This document shows positions 870 through 33,173 of a stretch of DNA of 33,695 nucleotides, piece after piece. Position 1 is the stretch's first letter, and every line of letters begins with the position of its first letter. The translations under genes were made by a program, and so were the position numbers. The notes under the pieces were generated by a model. That model did not search any database. It was not told the DNA's origin and saw only the letters and a list, made by a program, of their open reading frames with translations. The stretch spans positions 1 to 33,695 of the forward strand of contig JBHIDS010000003.1 in NCBI GenBank assembly GCA_046760205.1, in the 5' to 3' direction. This DNA is from Candidatus Methanofastidiosia archaeon (GTDB taxonomy: Archaea; Methanobacteriota_B; Thermococci; Methanofastidiosales; SZ-28-30).

Positions 870-1946
870 TCAACCTTTTAAAACCCTCTCATAGTACCTC
901 TCGTACTTTGGGACAATCTTTTCTGGAGTGAAATATCTCAAAACCCTTTTTCTGCCAGCCTCTCCCATCTTTTTTTGTAAATCTTCATCCTCAAGAATCA
1001 TAAGGCACTTTTTGGCAATCTCTTCTATATCCCCCATCTTTACCAAAAAACCACACTCCTTTGTTATAACCTCTAAAAGTCCTCCAGTTTTTGTAGCCAC
1101 AACTGGAATCCCGCAGCTCATCGCCTCCAAGGCTGCAAGTCCAAAGCTCTCCATCTCGGAGGGAAGTAAGAAAAGGGAAGAACTCGACAAAACCTTTGAG
1201 ACATCTCTTAAATTTCCTGTGAACTTTACCATATCTTCAAGACCCAGCTCTTTTGCAAGCCTTTTGGCTTTCAACTTTTCTGGACCATCTCCCACCATTG
1301 TTAACCTGCACTCAATTCTCTTTGTTATCAACTTGAAGGCATGGATTATGTCTGGAATTCTCTTTATTCTTCTAAAGTTGGAGACGTGAACGATGGTCCT
1401 TTCCCTTCTCTCCACAAACCTCCTCTTGAACTTCAAAGGGTCTATGAAGTTGTGAATAACCTCTATATGGTTTTTTATTCCAAACTCTTTTATGGTGAGT
1501 CTTTTTAGATAATTGGAAACAGAGGTTAATCCATCACTCTTTTCCATCGAGAACTTGGTTATACTTTTATACGATGGATCTAGACCAACGAGCTGAACAT
1601 CTGTTCCATGAAGGGTTGTAACGATTTTCACCCTGTTTGTGAGTTTTTTTGCAAGGTATGCAGAGGTGGAATGAGGTATGGCATAGTGAACGTGCAGCAG
1701 TTCGAGTTTTTCCTTCTCACAGACTTCAGCCATCTTTGAGGTTAGAGCCAAGGTATATGGTGGGAACTTGAACAGTGGGTACTTTAGCATATCAACTCTG
1801 TGAAAGTGAACCTTCTCATCCAACCTAAAGGGCAAAGAATAGCTTATGAAGTGTACCTCATGATGTTTGGCAAGCTCTCTTCCAAGCTCAGATGCCACTA
1901 CACCGCTGCCCCCAAAGGTGGGATAACAGGTAATTCCAATCCTCAT
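870..1946 (-). CDS. bshA: N-acetyl-alpha-D-glucosaminyl L-malate synthase BshA (GT4)
   Basis: Signature segments MRIGITCYPTFGGSGVVASELG, FPPYTLAL, LLHVHYAIPH, TTLHGTD, HVSNFR and ESFGLAALEAM. Adjacent to bshB1 and bshC. Confidence 0.93.
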   Translation of the reverse strand: MRIGITCYPTFGGSGVVASELGRELAKHHEVHFISYSLPFRLDEKVHFHRVDMLKYPLFKFPPYTLALTSKMAEVCEKEKLELLHVHYAIPHSTSAYLAKKLTNRVKIVTTLHGTDVQLVGLDPSYKSITKFSMEKSDGLTSVSNYLKRLTIKEFGIKNHIEVIHNFIDPLKFKRRFVERRERTIVHVSNFRRIKRIPDIIHAFKLITKRIECRLTMVGDGPEKLKAKRLAKELGLEDMVKFTGNLRDVSKVLSSSSLFLLPSEMESFGLAALEAMSCGIPVVATKTGGLLEVITKECGFLVKMGDIEEIAKKCLMILEDEDLQKKMGEAGRKRVLRYFTPEKIVPKYERYYERVLKG

Positions 1947-2654
1947 CTAAAACCTCCAAAACTTTAAAGGATCGTCAATCCTTAAAGTATCTCTCACCAA
2001 GAAAGCCTCTCCATACTGAGTGTTTATCATGGCACCATAAAATCTTGCCTTTGCCCTGGTGTGATAGAGATAGTTCTCAGCCCCTATGAATCTGTAGTTT
2101 TTTATCTCTTTTCTATTTAGAAATTGGGTTTTGAAGGCTTTTAAAGCCTCAATCTTTTTCTCAAAGTGGTTGGTGATATCCACTATGAAAGTTGGTCTAA
2201 AGGTGTCATGTACCATGTAGTAGATTAACTGGTTTGGAGAGTGAATATCTAAGTCAAGCTCGATCTTTGAAAGCCTTGCCATAAAGCAAGCCCTCTTACA
2301 GAGTTTGGAGGCTCTTGCATGATCTGGATGTCTGTCGTTCCAATAAGGTGCAAAAACTAAGGAAGGTCTTAACTTTCTAATCCTTTCTGCAAGCAAAACT
2401 CCATTCTCAAAGCTGTTTTCAATTTTACAGTCTCCAAGATTCAAATTCTCCCTCAAATCCAGCCCCAGAACCTCTGAAGATCTCTCAGCCTCTTTAAGTC
2501 TCTTTTTGAAATTTCCCCTCGAACCTAACTCACCTTTAGTTAAGTCTATTATCCCTGTCTTGTATCCTCTGGCTTTGAGCTTTGCCAAAGTCCCACCTAC
2601 TCCAAGCTCTGAATCATCTGGGTGGGCTCCCACAACTAAAACATCTATCTTCAT
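1947..2654 (-). CDS. bshB1: Bacillithiol biosynthesis deacetylase BshB1 (PIG-L/LmbE family)
   Basis: Metal motifs AHPDDxE and DRHPDH, plus DLTKGELGSRG and YGEAF. Lies between bshC and bshA. Confidence 0.9.
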   Translation of the reverse strand: MKIDVLVVGAHPDDSELGVGGTLAKLKARGYKTGIIDLTKGELGSRGNFKKRLKEAERSSEVLGLDLRENLNLGDCKIENSFENGVLLAERIRKLRPSLVFAPYWNDRHPDHARASKLCKRACFMARLSKIELDLDIHSPNQLIYYMVHDTFRPTFIVDITNHFEKKIEALKAFKTQFLNRKEIKNYRFIGAENYLYHTRAKARFYGAMINTQYGEAFLVRDTLRIDDPLKFWRF

Positions 2655-4213
2655 GTATACACCAAAATGTGGTCTCCAGCCTCTGCTTTCTCAAATTCCT
2701 TTTTCAAAAGGTCTATAAAAGTGTTTCCAAATTTAGTGAGATAATAAAATACATTCAGCCTTCTTTCCTGAAGCCTTGATAAGGGAAAGAGGTTGTTGTG
2801 AGCCTTTTCAATCTGAGATCTTAGGATTTCATTTTTCATCTTTACAGAACTTAAAAATTTTGACTTCAAGGAGAACAACTCATTTTCAATTCTCTTACGT
2901 GATGCAAGGGTTGCTCTTTTCAAATTTGGATCTATGGATTCTGCATAATTTGAAATTTCATCGAATTCTTTAAGAATTCCTTTAGAGAAGTCATCGAAAT
3001 TTCCTACTTCTTTCCTTAAAAGTCTTGAAATTGGGCTTTCAAACTCCCTCAACTCAAAAACTTCAAGATTGTACTTTAAAAGAATCTTTTTAATCTTTCT
3101 CTCGACGATGGTGGCACCAAATCTAGGATAGATTGCAGGCATCTCCACTCCAAAGAATTCATAGACTTTCCTCAATTGGGCAAAATATGAGATCTCGGAA
3201 GAGCCCGCCACATAAGATAGGGTGGGAAGGAGATAGTCCTGAAAAACTGGTCTTGTAACAACGTTGGTGCTGAAAGAATCTATTTCAGAGTGTAAAAGCT
3301 CTTCAAACTCCTCTCTTTTGTAAACTCTTTCAGAAACCCTGAACTTGCTCCCATCGAACTCAACCCTCTCTCTTCTCCCATCCTGTATCAAAAAGAGGTT
3401 GCAGCTCCCCAAAACCTTGTGGAGCTTAGGTTTGTACCCTCTTTCTCTTAGCTTTTCAGAGGAGGCTTTAACAAGCTTTGAGATTTTTGTTGGATTTTCA
3501 ATGAGCCTCTCACAGAATTTGGGCATGAACTTTCTCAAAGGGTGAGGTTCTATCAAAATCAAACCATAATTTGAGAACAACCTACTCATGATTCTTGAGA
3601 AGTACTCCCCAAGATTTGTAGATTTTTCAGCCTCTTTTTTAAGCATAAGGATAAAAAAATCCTTGAACTCACTCTCAGATGTGGTTTCATCCATATTTTC
3701 AATCAATTCAAAAACGTTTACCTCACCTGTTTTTATGTCAGAAATACTTTTTTTTTCTATCTTGCCTTTAAGTTCAAGCTTTTCAGGACGGTTGTCTTTT
3801 AGAATATAAGTAGATGCAATCTCCTCAAAGTCATGATCCTCTGAGGCATTCCAGAATAGGGGCACGCACTTTATATTCCTTTTCTTCAACCTCTCACAAA
3901 GTATGATGGCTGTGAGAGCCTTGTAGATGGTAAATAGTGATCCTGTAAAGATTCCTGCTTGCTGTCCAGAAACAACAACATAGGTATCCTCACTTAAAAG
4001 GGTTTCTAGATTCTCAAAGACCTTGTCTCCAGCTTCGATTCTCTTATTGTACTCCCTTAAAACCTTCAAAAGGCTTTCCCTATCTATTTCTCTATTAGAA
4101 ATTTCAATTTTTCTGTAGTCTTTGGCATAGAAGTCTTTCAACTTCTCAAAGTTCAAAATATAATCGTAAGCTATCGTTCCTTTCTTCAAGATCTTGTTCA
4201 TATCTAATTGCAT
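2651..4213 (-). CDS. bshC: Bacillithiol biosynthesis cysteine-adding enzyme BshC
   Basis: GQQAGIFTGxLFTIYKAL, WNASEDHDFEEI, SxNVVTRPVFQDYLLP, YVAGSSEISYF and LQER are BshC/YllA motifs. 520 aa; ATGA overlap with bshB1. Confidence 0.92.
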   Translation of the reverse strand: MQLDMNKILKKGTIAYDYILNFEKLKDFYAKDYRKIEISNREIDRESLLKVLREYNKRIEAGDKVFENLETLLSEDTYVVVSGQQAGIFTGSLFTIYKALTAIILCERLKKRNIKCVPLFWNASEDHDFEEIASTYILKDNRPEKLELKGKIEKKSISDIKTGEVNVFELIENMDETTSESEFKDFFILMLKKEAEKSTNLGEYFSRIMSRLFSNYGLILIEPHPLRKFMPKFCERLIENPTKISKLVKASSEKLRERGYKPKLHKVLGSCNLFLIQDGRRERVEFDGSKFRVSERVYKREEFEELLHSEIDSFSTNVVTRPVFQDYLLPTLSYVAGSSEISYFAQLRKVYEFFGVEMPAIYPRFGATIVERKIKKILLKYNLEVFELREFESPISRLLRKEVGNFDDFSKGILKEFDEISNYAESIDPNLKRATLASRKRIENELFSLKSKFLSSVKMKNEILRSQIEKAHNNLFPLSRLQERRLNVFYYLTKFGNTFIDLLKKEFEKAEAGDHILVYT

Positions 4214-15478: not shown

Positions 15479-15776
15479 AGTCTTATAAAATTTGATTTTG
15501 TTGAGTGAACAAAAATAGGCTTTGGGCTTGGCATTTGAAGGATGTTGGCAAAAAGAATTAGGGAACTTTATTTCAGATATGCAACCAAAAGCTAATCCCC
15601 ACTTAGATTTCTTGGTTAGTTTTTTGGAATTATTAGACAATCCCATGTGAATAGAAAAATTTATAAAGAAATAAAAGCCATAAAGAAGTAGAAAGATTCA
15701 CTCAGAATGAGCATTTGCGTATTGCGTATATCCCTAACGTTAGGCGACATTTTGCTCGTTAACCAGGAAGATTAGA

Positions 15777-17291
15777 ATGTCCACTGTTGATCCTAGAATC
15801 ATGGAACTTGCAATAGAAGTAGCGAAAAAGTCGAAACCAGAATCTAATAGTCGGATTCATCTAAAAGTTGGTGTAGTTATCGTTAAAAAGGGAAAGGTCT
15901 TAGAGACAGGTTGCAGAGGAGAATTATGCGTGGGAGAACATGCAGAATATACTGTGATTGAAAGAAAATTGAAGAATAGAGATTTAACAGGTTCTGTACT
16001 ATATACTACTCTGGAACCTTGCACAACTCGAAAACATCCCAAAATACCATGTGCTAAATGGATAGTTAAGAGAAGAATACATACAGTGGTAATAGGAATT
16101 TTAGACCCGAATCCAGAAATCCGAGGTAAGGGAGTATTGTTTTTGAGAGAAAATAACATCTTGGTGGAACATTTTCCTGCCGAATTACAATTGAAAATCG
16201 AGGAAATAAATAAAGACTTCATAAAACAAATCAAAAAGAAACTATCTTTTGATGACGAATCCTCAATTGAAGCTCCTTCCGATTATGAAAAGAAACCATT
16301 ATACGCTGCGAGCATAAATGACTTATCGTTGGAATCTATTAGATTCTATTTTCAACGCATTAACTCAAAGATTCCTGTCCCATCGGAAGAACTTTGGCAA
16401 TTTTTCTTGAAAAGAGGTTTTTTGATCATTTCTGGGAAGAAAAGAATCTTAGTTCCAACAGTAGCAGGGCTTCTCCTGTTTGGAAAGGATCCGGAAACCT
16501 TCTTAGTTCAAAGTAAAATAAAAGCAGACTGTTTTCGTGGAAATGAACCGGTTGAAACAATCGATCATTTAGACATTAGAGGACCACTCCCTAAAATAAT
16601 AGACGAAACTACAAAATTCTTCCTTAGAAACATGAAGAGTGCCATGAGGATTGAAGGATTTTCGAGAGTCGAGATTACCGAGTATCCTCTGGAAGCATTA
16701 CGAGAAGCTGTTCGAAATGCTGTAATTCATAGAAATTATGCGATAGAGGGTGCTACTGTGATGGTTAAGATGTTTAGAGATTGGGTTATCATAGAAAGTC
16801 CTGGACTTCTCCCACATCCCTTAACTTTAGAAAAAATTCGCTCCTTGAATTATAAACCAGTTTCAAGAAATCCAATTATAGCGAGGGCGATGTTTGATAT
16901 GAAATTTATGGAAGAAAGAGGAGGCGGAATTAGGAGGATGCACGACGAGATGTTAAATCATGGGCTAAAAGAGCCAATCTTTAATTACGATTCGGGTTAT
17001 TTTACTGTGACTTTCCACGGTCCTGGTGAAAAGATACTGGACATTCACCCCCAAAAAGTAACAATAGTTTATGCAATTGAGCCAGCCAAACTTGCTTTGC
17101 TCAATGAACGACAAAAGGGCATTCTAAAGTATCTTCTTGAGCATGGGAGGATAACAAGTGAGGAATGTACGAGACACTTTAACATCACCAGGGATACAGC
17201 AAACAGAGACTTTAAGAGATTGATTGAAAAGGGATTAATAGAAAAAAGAGGAATAGGACGGGCAACTCATTATGTTCTTAAAGAGAGATAG
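15777..17291 (+). CDS. Zn-dependent deaminase domain fused to a RecG-C/HATPase_c_4-like domain and a C-terminal winged HTH
   Basis: N-terminus has HAE...LEPC-x9-C and DPNP. The middle has PTVAGLLLFGKDP, YPLEALREAVRNAVIHRNY, ESPG, SRNPII and EERGGG. The C-terminus is DeoR-like (LNERQ...TANRDFKRLIEKGLI...G.GR). Confidence 0.8.
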   Translation: MSTVDPRIMELAIEVAKKSKPESNSRIHLKVGVVIVKKGKVLETGCRGELCVGEHAEYTVIERKLKNRDLTGSVLYTTLEPCTTRKHPKIPCAKWIVKRRIHTVVIGILDPNPEIRGKGVLFLRENNILVEHFPAELQLKIEEINKDFIKQIKKKLSFDDESSIEAPSDYEKKPLYAASINDLSLESIRFYFQRINSKIPVPSEELWQFFLKRGFLIISGKKRILVPTVAGLLLFGKDPETFLVQSKIKADCFRGNEPVETIDHLDIRGPLPKIIDETTKFFLRNMKSAMRIEGFSRVEITEYPLEALREAVRNAVIHRNYAIEGATVMVKMFRDWVIIESPGLLPHPLTLEKIRSLNYKPVSRNPIIARAMFDMKFMEERGGGIRRMHDEMLNHGLKEPIFNYDSGYFTVTFHGPGEKILDIHPQKVTIVYAIEPAKLALLNERQKGILKYLLEHGRITSEECTRHFNITRDTANRDFKRLIEKGLIEKRGIGRATHYVLKER

Positions 17292-17294
17292 ATC

Positions 17295-17404
17295 TTGCGT
17301 CAGATTTACGTCAGAAGTTCAACATTTTGCGTCAGATATTATTTTCTCAAAGAATAATGCTTCCTGTCAGATTTACATCTGGTTTTTAAAATTTTGCGTC
17401 AGAT
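17295..17404 (+). repeat. Five copies of a TTGCGTCAGAT-like motif
   Basis: TTGCGTCAGAT at 17295, 17327 and 17394; TTACGTCAGAA at 17306; CTGTCAGAT at 17364. Confidence 0.75.
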
Positions 17405-17430
17405 AGTAGATTTATGTAAGCAAAACGGTC

Positions 17431-17519
17431 GCCTAACACAGCATAAAAGGTTCGTGCTTTACGACATTTACCCAAATTTTTGCTTCGCAAAAACTTCTTT
17501 TATGTTGCTTTCGTTAGCC
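17431..17519 (+). other. attC-like recombination site (89 bp)
   Basis: R'' GCCTAAC (RYYYAAC, 17431-37); arm CATAAAAG (17442-49) pairs with CTTTTATG (17497-504); inner hairpin TTTTTGC-TTC-GCAAAAA (17477-93); R'-like GTTAGCC (17513-19). Confidence 0.65.
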
Positions 17520-17696
17520 AATATACTGCCAGAGAAAGTACTTCACATATATTGTTTTGCAAACCAGAGATTTTTGTGCAAAGTGATACTGAATAATGCA
17601 TTATTGATTGTGAAAAGGGTGATTAGGATTTAGTTCCAAACCCAGCTCTCCAAAAAGCTTATATTGATGTTTCTAAACATCTTAGGAGTGGCTTGA

Positions 17697-31640: not shown

Positions 31641-31797
31641 GCCTCGGTGGCTTAGCGGTAGAGCGACCGCCTCGTAAGAACCCCTTTTCTTTCTTAAAAG
31701 AAAGAAAAGCTGTTCATGGGAAAAGAAAGAATTTTTCTCTTTCAAAAAAAGGTTCAGAGAGAGCGGTAGGTCGGGGGTTCGAATCCCCCCCGAGGCT
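31641..31797 (+). tRNA. tRNA-Thr(CGT) with an 85-nt intron at position 37/38 (31677-31761)
   Basis: Acceptor stem GCCTCGG/CCGAGGC, anticodon stem ACCGC/GCGGT, loop CT-CGT-A|A, T arm GGGGG-TTCGAAT-CCCCC. BHB motif with bulges TAA and AGA and outer helix GAACC/GGTTC. Confidence 0.92.
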
Positions 31798-31799
31798 TT

Positions 31800-31873
31800 G
31801 GGGTCGTAGGGTAGCTTGGTGATCCTTGTGCCTTCGGGAGGCATAGACTCGAGTTCGAATCTCGGCGACCCCA
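31800..31873 (+). tRNA. tRNA-Pro(CGG)
   Basis: Acceptor stem GGGGTCG/CGACCCC, anticodon arm GTGCC-TTCGGGA-GGCAT, T loop TTCGAAT; CCA is not encoded. Confidence 0.95.
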
Positions 31874-31919
31874 TAAAATATTTAGATAAACCTTATAAAC
31901 CTTCAAAGGAATCCAAAAT

Positions 31920-33173
31920 ATGAAGTACCAGAGCTTCACCTCCCCAAGGTGCAAGATCTTTGTGGAGATGGATAAAACTCTGAAAATATCGAGAGAAAAA
32001 TGCATAACCTGCAAGGGGAGATTGCTCTGTGGACTTCCAGCTTGCCCGATACTAGAGCAGGTGAAGGTTCAGAGATTGAAGAAAGAAAAACTAAGGAAAA
32101 ACTTTCAGGGTCCTGCACCCTCTCTCTTTGTGAGTTGGCACGACTATCCCAACGTCAACGTAGGATTTCTCTCTCTTCCATTTCACACAGAAGATTCAAT
32201 GATTTATGATGATCCAGCAAGATGGTATGGACTTGGATTTCCTGAGATCATAGAGTACAGATCAAGCCTTGTACGTTCAATGGAAAAGTGTAACGTTAAG
32301 GATAAAGGAAAACTCACCCAAAACCTTGAGGAGATTTCTGCCTCTGAAATTCCAGTTGAGGTTGAGATTGGGTTGAAGTCAAAGCCCAAATTCCAAGTGG
32401 TTTTCTCAGCCATAGCACAACCTATGGGACCTTTTGGCAAGCTCAAAAGCTTCAAGATAACGGAAAATCCTAAGATTCCAAAAAAAGTGGATAGAATTCT
32501 TGGAGATGAGCTCAAGGCTGCAGACTCTTTAAACCTTTTGTACAGAAAAGGACTCGATGTTTACTATCTTGAAAGAATCTTCAGTGCGGGAATTTTGGGA
32601 AATGAGAGAAAGCTGGTGCCGACCAGATGGAGCATTACAGCTGTAGACAACATTCTATCTAATCGTATGATAGATGAAATCAAAAACTTTAAGATTTTGG
32701 AGAATTTCAAGATATTTTCAAATTCCTATCTTGGAAACCACTTCGAGATTCTGCTCATGCCTGAAAGATGGCGATACGAGCAGCTTGAGGCTTGGGTTCC
32801 AAATACATTCTGGACTTTAGGACTCAGTGAGATAAAGCTCATAGGGGAGCACGAAACCTACTTTGGAAGGAGTGACTATGCCATTCGAGAGGGTGGGGGT
32901 TACTATGCAGTAAGGTTTGCAGTTTGTGAGCTTTTAAAAAGCATGAGAAGACAAGCTACAGTTCTTGTTTTTAGAGAGACCTCGAAAGATTACTATCTTT
33001 CTGTTGGAGTATGGGAGTGTCGAGAAAATATAAGGAATGCCAGAGAGATTTCAGAGTTTGAGAGTTTAAAAGATGCCTTGAACGACATTGGGGGGAGGTT
33101 GAGGATACCAATCAAAGATTGGAAAAAGAAAAGCATTATTCTAAACCAAGAAAAACTGGATCACTGGATTTAA
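31920..33173 (+). CDS. nreA: Nre family archaeal DNA repair protein
   Basis: CxxCKGRLLCGxxxCP zinc finger, PSLFV, RKLVPTRWSITAVD, GGYYA and C-terminal PIP box QEKLDHWI. The start may be ATG 31968. Confidence 0.9.
   Translation: MKYQSFTSPRCKIFVEMDKTLKISREKCITCKGRLLCGLPACPILEQVKVQRLKKEKLRKNFQGPAPSLFVSWHDYPNVNVGFLSLPFHTEDSMIYDDPARWYGLGFPEIIEYRSSLVRSMEKCNVKDKGKLTQNLEEISASEIPVEVEIGLKSKPKFQVVFSAIAQPMGPFGKLKSFKITENPKIPKKVDRILGDELKAADSLNLLYRKGLDVYYLERIFSAGILGNERKLVPTRWSITAVDNILSNRMIDEIKNFKILENFKIFSNSYLGNHFEILLMPERWRYEQLEAWVPNTFWTLGLSEIKLIGEHETYFGRSDYAIREGGGYYAVRFAVCELLKSMRRQATVLVFRETSKDYYLSVGVWECRENIRNAREISEFESLKDALNDIGGRLRIPIKDWKKKSIILNQEKLDHWI

Follow-up and report, generated by a model that had tools for sequence, protein, structure and literature searches.

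A RibD-like deaminase joined to a GHKL ATPase and winged-helix scaffold on an integron-type cassette in an archaeal genome: a candidate single-gene conflict system

About 59% of 103,533 prokaryotic Schlafen proteins carry a GHKL domain, mostly together with a C-terminal helix-turn-helix (HTH) (10.64898/2026.05.29.728809). The Schlafen-HisKinase(-HTH) form is the commonest of 55 pSlfn architectures and has been proposed to combine an effector with a sensor; for 69.6% of pSlfn genes, a defence gene is found at a distance of 10 kb or less (PMC13056530). The Schlafen-Argonaute protein RzAgo forms tetramers by means of its PF13749 domain, which binds ATP and hydrolyses it, residues E314 and N318 contacting the gamma-phosphate and Mg (10.64898/2026.05.29.728809). 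DUF4062 is a TIR-like, NAD+-degrading defence effector, as has been demonstrated experimentally (10.64898/2026.05.01.722283, 10.64898/2026.06.25.731849, 10.64898/2026.09.04.749371), and in the DUF4062 system Swarozyc a winged/HTH auxiliary domain recognises the phage portal protein (10.64898/2026.05.01.722283). Here, we describe a gene that joins a RibD-like zinc deaminase to a PF13749 and winged HTH (wHTH) scaffold of this kind. It lies in the window, i.e., the whole stretch of 33,695 nucleotides (nt) that we analysed, which comes from a Candidatus Methanofastidiosia archaeon (GenBank assembly GCA_046760205.1, contig JBHIDS010000003.1, positions 1 to 33,695 of the forward strand).

The gene is an intact, ATG-started open reading frame (ORF) at 15777..17291 on the + strand, encoding 504 residues in which the translation, Pfam and AlphaFold2 distinguish a deaminase, a middle domain, a GHKL ATPase and a wHTH. 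Pfam placed dCMP_cyt_deam_1 at residues 5-107 (E 4.2e-16), HATPase_c_4 (PF13749) at 325-413 (E 3.3e-24), HTH_DeoR at 445-490 (E 4.9e-8) and HTH_24 at 442-489; in the same 504 residues there was no match to SLFN_AlbA_2 (PF04326) at E<=1 and none to DUF4062 (PF13271). An AlphaFold2 model computed with 30 homologues as input had a mean predicted local distance difference test score (pLDDT) of 86.3 and a predicted template-modelling score (pTM) of 0.54, at which the placement of the domains relative to each other is uncertain. It was parsed into a deaminase (1-156), a disordered stretch (157-163), a scaffold (about 170-425) and the wHTH (436-504). Using Foldseek, we matched the first domain to RibG/RibD over about 146-152 columns at a root-mean-square deviation of 1.9-2.5 A and 30-36% identity, TadA-type tRNA deaminases being the next-best structural matches, and the scaffold to 3LMM/DIP2311 (E 1.9e-15), a structural-genomics protein of the AlbA_2/HATPase_c_4 type. 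On the DNA (all +), the deaminase (residues 1-156; Pfam, Foldseek and alignments) occupies 15777..16244, with its HAE motif at nt 15939-15947, PC-x9-C at nt 16017-16052 and a D110-P-N112-P loop. The middle domain (residues 170-324), which alignments show to be common to SLFN- and DUF4062-bearing relatives, follows at 16284..16748, the ATPase core (325-413; Pfam) at 16749..17015 and the C-terminal wHTH (436-504; Pfam and AlphaFold2) at 17082..17288.

The residues expected at a zinc site are all present in the translation (H55-A56-E57; P81-C82, nine residues, then C92), and H55, E57, C82 and C92 are invariant across 30 members of the family, whose identity to the window protein is 37-89%. Also invariant in 30 sequences is E310-x3-N314 (nt 16704-16718), which lies upstream of the HATPase_c_4 core; by analogy with E314/N318 of RzAgo, this motif predicts that the GHKL domain binds ATP. 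PADLOC models of Ago-associated proteins matched residues 162-396. The NCBIfam RibD model (TIGR00326) was matched by its deaminase half alone, over model positions 1-142 of 343 and with 65.9 bits against a cut-off of 156.35. An earlier note, made from the letters of this DNA, had described an intact zinc-deaminase site with no RibD reductase, joined to HATPase_c_4 and a wHTH; Pfam, the translation, the partial RibD match, AlphaFold2 and Foldseek all agree with it.

We then compared the scaffold with those of its relatives. The host genome encodes one other HATPase_c_4 protein, of 451 residues, with SLFN_AlbA_2 at 15-123 and HATPase_c_4 at 291-376, and its gene (C8, L006:631-1986) is placed between hsdM and hsdS of a type I restriction-modification (R-M) operon. 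Residues 140-451 of this paralogue align with residues 170-502 of the window protein at 35% identity, so that the deaminase stands exactly in the position of the Schlafen domain. Among the 120 best homologues, the N-terminus was a deaminase in 60 (of which two are truncated at the N-terminus and lack the deaminase in the precomputed Pfam annotation), DUF4062-like in 57 and neither in 3. The DUF4062-bearing proteins, such as P0024 and P0035, form a sister clade whose scaffolds are 55-62% identical and joined at the same point; in P0024, residues 152-509 match residues 147-503 of the window protein at 61% identity. In a scaffold-only tree of 121 rows (trees here and below were built by a quick method), a single change of the deaminase label suffices (SH-aLRT, an approximate likelihood ratio test, 95), which fits one exchange between two sister clades. 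Repeated independent swaps between deaminase and DUF4062 were also considered and were rejected, because the scaffold tree needs one change. The deaminase thus replaces a SLFN or DUF4062 module at one junction, and the effector swap that had been proposed from the sequence is supported by both comparisons, with the SLFN_AlbA_2 slot of the host paralogue and with the DUF4062 slot of the sister clade.

The RibD-like clade of deaminases is defined by HxE, by a CxxC insert with a conserved His and by an extended strand-4/helix-4 insert (Iyer et al. 2011, PMC3239186). The window protein carries this signature, with HAE at 55-57, a C82-x9-C92 insert with H87 and a DPNP...G loop at 110-119; H87 is nearly invariant in the wider deaminase clade, but not in all fusion members. 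RibG is tetrameric; in BsRibG, the 2'- and 3'-OH of the ribose are bound by Asp101 and Asn103 and the phosphate by Lys79 (PMC8256712). In a HMMER alignment to 2B3Z, D110 and N112 fall on Asp101 and Asn103 and K89 stands beside the Lys79 column; across the 30 family members D110 is invariant, with N112 and K89 almost as well conserved. Since the kept RibG ribose contacts favour a mononucleotide or a 3' end over a base inside a polymer, we infer that the substrate would be ribonucleotide-like and have its ribose free. E22, R47 and R85 are further invariant residues, not shown by the aligned RibD rows at those columns, and, like the ribose and phosphate contacts, the basic R47 and R85 may point to a target that is a free ribonucleotide, a nucleotide cofactor or the 3' end of an RNA. 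We placed 107 deaminase domains in a tree, where 30 from fusions and 50 from other architectures formed one group (SH-aLRT 97) apart from 25 RibDs (92); the RibDs were taken from the host phylum only, the outgroups stood on long branches and the other architectures were sampled as every third of 149 proteins.

Integron core sites follow the R' consensus GTTRRRY, with the inverse RYYYAAC, and recombine at a crossover between the G and the TT. The deaminase-fusion gene is an integron-type cassette, standing alone in the window and in arrays only in metagenome copies. We found nine such copies, encoding proteins 77-93% identical to that of the window and having no flank in common with it; by tblastx, the similarity is limited to about 15707-17360. 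The left cassette boundary is a core site, GTTAGGC, at 15739..15745 (+), located by an alignment of eight rows and the tblastx limits: GTTAGG is present in 6/8 aligned rows, and the sequence upstream is unrelated and ends in G. Between this site and the ATG lies a short leader (15746..15776, +), conserved in the alignment and containing a purine-rich ribosome-binding stretch. From the stop codon to the attC-like site extends an iteron block (17295..17410, +; repeat search and alignment), in which three exact copies of TTGCGTCAGAT and one copy with two mismatches lie within a 67-nt tandem duplication. The block is kept even where the proteins of the cassette copies have no more than 77-83% identity, and it could be an operator for the wHTH, a cassette promoter or terminator, or a small RNA.

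The attC-like site itself spans 17416..17529 (+; alignment, fold and the model R1 described below) and consists of an inverse core GCCTAAC (17431-17437), a conserved inner stem, a variable terminal hairpin and a hybrid core GTTAGCC (17514-17520). Its inner stem is kept in 4/4 rows and five pairs of the terminal hairpin are changed on both sides; the single-sequence fold z-score is -1.3 only, and one copy (L104) has an insertion of ~80 nt in the attC loop. At the right edge, conservation runs through the iterons and the attC-like site and ends between CG and TTA at about 17516, and among 4-6 independent copies homology ends at the G-TT crossover on both sides. At ~1.78 kb, the cassette seems to be a large one for an integron. 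The homology shared with close relatives is thus confined to one cassette between integron core sites, in keeping with the single, mobile gene of the earlier note; its aside that this was an integron-cassette setting held for the gene and failed for the rest of the window, which is a glycosylation cluster and not a cassette array.

To look for further sites of this type, we used a covariance model of the attC-like site (R1), built from four closely related sites, all four of which it recovers. In each of the metagenome copies L100 and L102 it found two further sites, flanking the ORF just upstream of the deaminase-fusion gene; in L102 this ORF (1805-3001) is a SIR2_2-domain cassette, with attC matches at 1789-1877 and 3180-3261. 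These copies therefore hold same-strand cassette arrays, and the window a single attC-like site. The host genome gave 14 further R1 matches at E<=1, seven of which were at E<=3e-4, each on a different contig. The 11 best lie at C167:1949-2063, C198:2114-2218, C49:2266-2392, C110:6054-6164, C73:9192-9288, C64:2-77, C118:1620-1699, C31:892-975, C31:9476-9601, C58:9959-10064 and C87:9426-9517; nine of them follow an ORF of the same strand at a distance of up to 100 nt, a tenth is ambiguous and the last stands at the end of a contig. The host attC-like sites have a common CCCAAAT loop motif and are scattered singly over contigs of this metagenome-assembled genome (MAG; 285 contigs, 91.9% complete). 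When applied to 80 bacterial and other loci (1.16 Mb), R1 gave one match, which shows that the model is specific and that the bacterial fusions mostly lie outside cassettes with this type of attC. An integron integrase was not found in the host MAG, where the best match to TIGR02249 reached 84 bits against a cut-off of 265 and lacked model positions 179-235. Integrons and CALINs have been reported in 75 archaeal MAGs (10.1101/2022.02.06.479319), and defence systems are known to be encoded in integron cassettes (10.1101/2024.07.02.601686; also 10.1101/2024.07.02.601719).

A proper attC is absent upstream of the cassette in the window, so that its position seems to be that of a minimal or secondary site. 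If 15732-15745 and 17514-17525 are joined without the cassette, they make a near-palindrome in which an inverse-core-like site abuts a core-like site. Both cassette junctions are spanned by contigs of a different study (X3). The bins over the attC-like site (17354-17567) had 1.4-6x the depth of neighbouring bins in X3, 17-26x in X7 and 4-11x in X8, with many loose ends, as is expected of a repeated site. In X2, one contig of 94 nt connects 15490 with 17647, leaving out 2156 nt and having seven other letters in between, its shorter side being 30 letters; its depth was 13.2, while the cassette contig had 12.9 and the flank 22.9. This is a weak hint of a co-existing cassette-free allele from which 2156 nt, more than the cassette itself, would be absent. 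In one metagenome copy, 92% identical (L101, 224-1711 and 1746-3398; neighbourhood scan), a DDE transposase gene abuts the 3' end of the gene and similarity to the window protein ends at residue 479, so that its C-terminal wHTH may be altered.

We also examined where homologues occur and what surrounds them. A scan of one genome per species gave at least 590 confirmed relatives, and neighbourhoods were counted for the best 80, of which 58 were full-length fusions of 28-42% identity from many bacterial phyla, among them the cultured Algoriphagus sp. A40 and Hymenobacter lutimineralis. The fusion was present in 0/40 relatives of the host, and no full-length fusion was seen among six confirmed relatives in viral contigs. 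R-M genes, detected by hidden Markov models grown from Pfam-checked seeds in loci whose ORFs were called by a longest-ORF rule, lay within six ORFs in 21/58 bacterial loci (17 type I and 4 type III) and directly adjacent (+/-1) in 12/58; the sole baseline for these counts is a housekeeping figure in PMC13056530, which is not a matched control. The gene order was hsdS/gene/hsdR in L039, L040 and L068, and res/gene/mod in L047, L059 and L064. AbiEii, AAA_13, TIR_2 and HD neighbours occurred in two loci each. With R-M genes near these 21 bacterial loci and one close copy following the SIR2-like cassette, the survey of homologues supports the defence context that had been suggested. AAA_13 proteins, at L070:7467-9698 and L022:4547-6775, stand beside bacterial deaminase fusions in loci that both hold type I R-M genes within six ORFs. 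We take them to be of the PrrC/RloC type.

On balance, we think that the gene is probably a single-gene conflict system on an integron-type cassette, in which a scaffold controlled by ATP and by the HTH would release a ribonucleotide-directed deaminase, most likely against viruses or mobile elements. In such a system, for which we infer the defence role, the ATP control, the substrate class and the trigger, the RibD-like deaminase would be the effector, the GHKL ATPase the switch, and the middle domain and wHTH the sensor or anchor. At rest, the deaminase would be kept inactive. A trigger would be sensed via the wHTH or the middle domain and, in many bacterial relatives, may be tied to the neighbouring R-M system; since the wHTH of Swarozyc recognises a portal protein, the wHTH here need not bind DNA. 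By analogy with RzAgo, ATP binding may then drive oligomerisation, which would assemble active deaminase units. Deaminases of this fold being generally oligomeric, as is tetrameric RibG, assembly could switch the enzyme on. A free nucleotide, a cofactor or a 3'-terminal RNA nucleotide would then be deaminated, which might poison or starve the replication of the invader and possibly of the cell too. The embedding in R-M operons suggests a back-up role, with the system firing when restriction is blocked, for which PrrC provides an analogy.

Several observations weigh against a conflict role and have to be set beside the competing explanations. The neighbours of the gene in the window are glycosylation genes, not defence genes. 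R-M genes are missing within six ORFs from 37/58 bacterial loci, and the 124 ORFs at +/-2 in those 37 loci are mostly housekeeping, with few defence-type matches (a DUF1156 methylase, PD-T4-6-like kinases and ORC/Cdc6-like proteins). A pTM of 0.54 leaves the domain arrangement uncertain, and the RibD-type ribose contacts could equally suit a metabolic ligand. The two SLFN-HisKinase constructs of Taboada et al. were not among their two protecting systems (PMC13056530). One alternative is a ligand-responsive transcription factor, in which the deaminase is a metabolite sensor or "trigger enzyme" of nucleotide or pterin metabolism, the wHTH binds DNA, for example the cassette iterons, and there is no conflict role. 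The wHTH is of the DeoR/MarR type, some relatives are annotated as "DeoR family transcriptional regulator", the iteron block 3' of the stop codon is kept among close copies, and those 37 loci lie among housekeeping genes. We nevertheless regard this explanation as unlikely, because the catalytic residues are invariant, which a dead sensor would not need, and because in other proteins this scaffold is combined with an NADase or with a tRNA nuclease. Moreover, the distribution is patchy (0/40 relatives), the neighbourhood differs in every close copy, leaving no conserved target operon, and 12/58 loci place the gene directly beside R-M genes. The conserved repeat block and the integron-type cassette, together with a single gene whose enzymatic domain is potentially toxic, also raise the idea of an addiction module that stabilises the cassette, with the deaminase as a toxin restrained by the scaffold and wHTH or by an RNA from the iteron block, selected for cassette retention and not for virus defence. 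There is no second small conserved ORF, since nothing in the window corresponds to the small ORFs that overlie the repeats of L103 and L107, and the bacterial relatives are mostly outside this attC type (one match in 1.16 Mb) and often in R-M operons. We therefore give this idea little credence, although it overlaps with abortive-infection defence and is hard to tell apart from it.

The remaining two alternatives concern what the deaminase acts on. Flanked by hsdS and hsdR or by res and mod in bacterial loci, and taking the place of a tRNA-directed nuclease, it might be an R-M accessory that edits or modifies bases in polymers, the wHTH bringing it to DNA or RNA for self-marking, mutagenesis of invaders or, by analogy with the Schlafen module, tRNA editing; the rank of TadA-type tRNA deaminases among the structural matches is in favour of this. 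However, the closest sequences and structures are RibD/RibG and not TadA or APOBEC, and the residues with which RibG holds a free ribose 2'- and 3'-OH are kept, which fits a mononucleotide or a 3' end, and editing of polymers appears quite improbable to us. Conversely, RibD and RibG being the best named matches, and the archaeal and fungal riboflavin pathway using a separate deaminase (PMC8256712), the domain could be thought to be a housekeeping pyrimidine deaminase of riboflavin synthesis fused to a regulator. This has been largely refuted and keeps only a trace of likelihood. RibD_C (PF01872), RibH/DMRL synthase (PF00885) and RibB/DHBP synthase (PF00926) were not found in the 91.9%-complete genome, with 14/14 control genomes positive; full-length RibD, which is present in 36/80 other genomes of the host phylum, was not found in the host. 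In addition, the domain belongs to a clade (SH-aLRT 97) separate from the 25 sampled RibDs, and the gene is cassette-borne and has no counterpart in 40 relatives. The window protein is not a riboflavin enzyme, and the riboflavin link, which the earlier note had listed among the findings that would refute its proposal, fails on both the pathway and the clade. A conflict system with a ribonucleotide-directed deaminase remains the reading that we favour.

The deaminase domain extends far beyond this scaffold. In HMMER searches with residues 1-160, the representative clusters that matched numbered 7851 at E<=1e-3 and, at the stricter E<=1e-30, 631. Identity was 47-69% for the top 150 deaminase matches, in which the domain stands at either end or in the middle of proteins of 147-1086 residues. 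When 124 of the 149 other proteins were scanned in Pfam, the deaminase was found in all and another domain in few: TPR in five, and a beta-propeller, KaiC, Mrr_cat, EAD7, cyclase, NUDIX and methyltransferase in one each; RibD_C was not among the 25 of 34 Pfam families listed for these 124 proteins. Neither HATPase_c_4 nor RibD_C was seen in the 10 that were scanned of 15 deaminase-only genome loci. A shuffled effector shows just such a pattern, in which one conserved catalytic domain is joined to a great many unannotated partners. It is therefore conceivable, though we hold this broader view with some doubt, that the RibD-like deaminase is a widespread, unrecognised immune effector domain comparable to DUF4062, fused to hundreds of mostly unannotated sensors in bacteria and archaea and deaminating a ribonucleotide or nucleotide cofactor that would be new as a defence target; the GHKL-wHTH form would then be its "Schlafen-replaced" version, moved between lineages, archaea included, by integron-type cassettes.

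Outside the cassette, the window is a glycan/N-glycosylation cluster with GT4 and GT2 transferases, epimerases, radical SAM proteins, methyltransferases, a flippase and STT3/AglB. Functional pairing with the upstream phosphodiesterase gene, in the manner of Vesta, was considered and rejected, as this flank is present in none of the close copies. At 870-4213 (-), a GT4 glycosyltransferase, a PIG-L deacetylase and BshC are adjacent, which looks like a complete bacillithiol bshA-bshB-bshC set in an archaeon. Rfam marks a tRNA over 157 nt, intron-bearing, at 31641-31797, which ARAGORN did not call and which adjoins tRNA-Pro(CGG) at 31799-31874; a comparison of 31920-33170 with the PDB gave no match. 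The MAG is archaeal in that ribosomal protein L31e is present; an archaeal small-subunit rRNA was not found in it. Elsewhere in the host (C40, L004:946-1893), a 315-residue fusion combines an AAA_33 kinase-like P-loop domain with a cytidine/dCMP-type deaminase, a layout that resembles that of the kinase-deaminase proteins of nucleotide-depletion defence.

We found no description in the literature of a deaminase-PF13749-wHTH protein or of a RibD-like deaminase as a defence effector, although supplementary tables of the Schlafen and DUF4062 papers might list the architecture. The word "deaminase" is absent from the readable texts of the Schlafen, SLFN-pAgo and DUF4062 papers. Defence genes on cassettes, the exchange of effectors and the scaffold itself are already known; what appears undescribed is the deaminase as an effector of this scaffold, and also how large its clade is. 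If our reading is true, a RibD-type deaminase would be a new effector chemistry on a scaffold known with a tRNA nuclease or an NADase, and the three forms would make a clean natural effector swap for dissecting how the GHKL-wHTH part senses and switches. The large unannotated family of deaminase fusions would then be a source of candidate immune proteins, and the window an actual example of an archaeon in which an integron-type cassette carries a defence-type gene, where one cassette found in several neighbourhoods bears on how such genes spread.

How, then, does this locus compare with systems that are already known? Like an integron cassette, it is a single ORF bounded by core sites and followed by an attC-like hairpin, with arrays in its metagenome copies; it differs in being a lone cassette within a glycosylation cluster, in a genome in which no integron integrase was found. 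Defence by dCTP deaminases that deplete nucleotides, reportedly described by Tal et al. 2022 and Hsueh et al. 2022, likewise employs a zinc deaminase of the cytidine deaminase fold as an effector on the nucleotide pool. The window protein differs from it in clade and partners, and the PADLOC dCTPase model, of 630 positions, matches residues 55-114 only (E 7.2e-4). With RibD/RibG it shares the fold, the HxE and PC-x9-C site, the inter-cysteine insert with His87 and the DPNP loop with its ribose-binding Asp/Asn, but it has no reductase, no pathway in its genome and a clade of its own, and it adds the invariant E22, R47 and R85. The DUF4062 (NIR) NADases Swarozyc, Evangelion, NIR-Avs2, Vulcan and Vesta are also single genes with a conserved effector and an auxiliary region; their DUF4062 with its catalytic Glu is absent here, and their tested auxiliary regions, as far as the readable text goes, are HTH/winged AUX, HEAT and STAND. 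HATPase, RecG, Schlafen and deaminase are unmentioned in the readable text of the DUF4062 preprints (10.64898/2026.05.01.722283, 10.64898/2026.06.25.731849, 10.64898/2026.09.04.749371). The Schlafen-GHKL(-HTH) proteins ("Schlatpase", pSlfn HisKinase-HTH, 3LMM/DIP2311) have the same scaffold of middle domain, PF13749 and wHTH, and embedding in type I R-M operons occurs in both (10.64898/2026.05.29.728809). What distinguishes the two is the N-terminal module, which in theirs is the defining SLFN_AlbA_2 nuclease, with its motif E-x4-(E/D)-x-K, and in the window protein a zinc deaminase.

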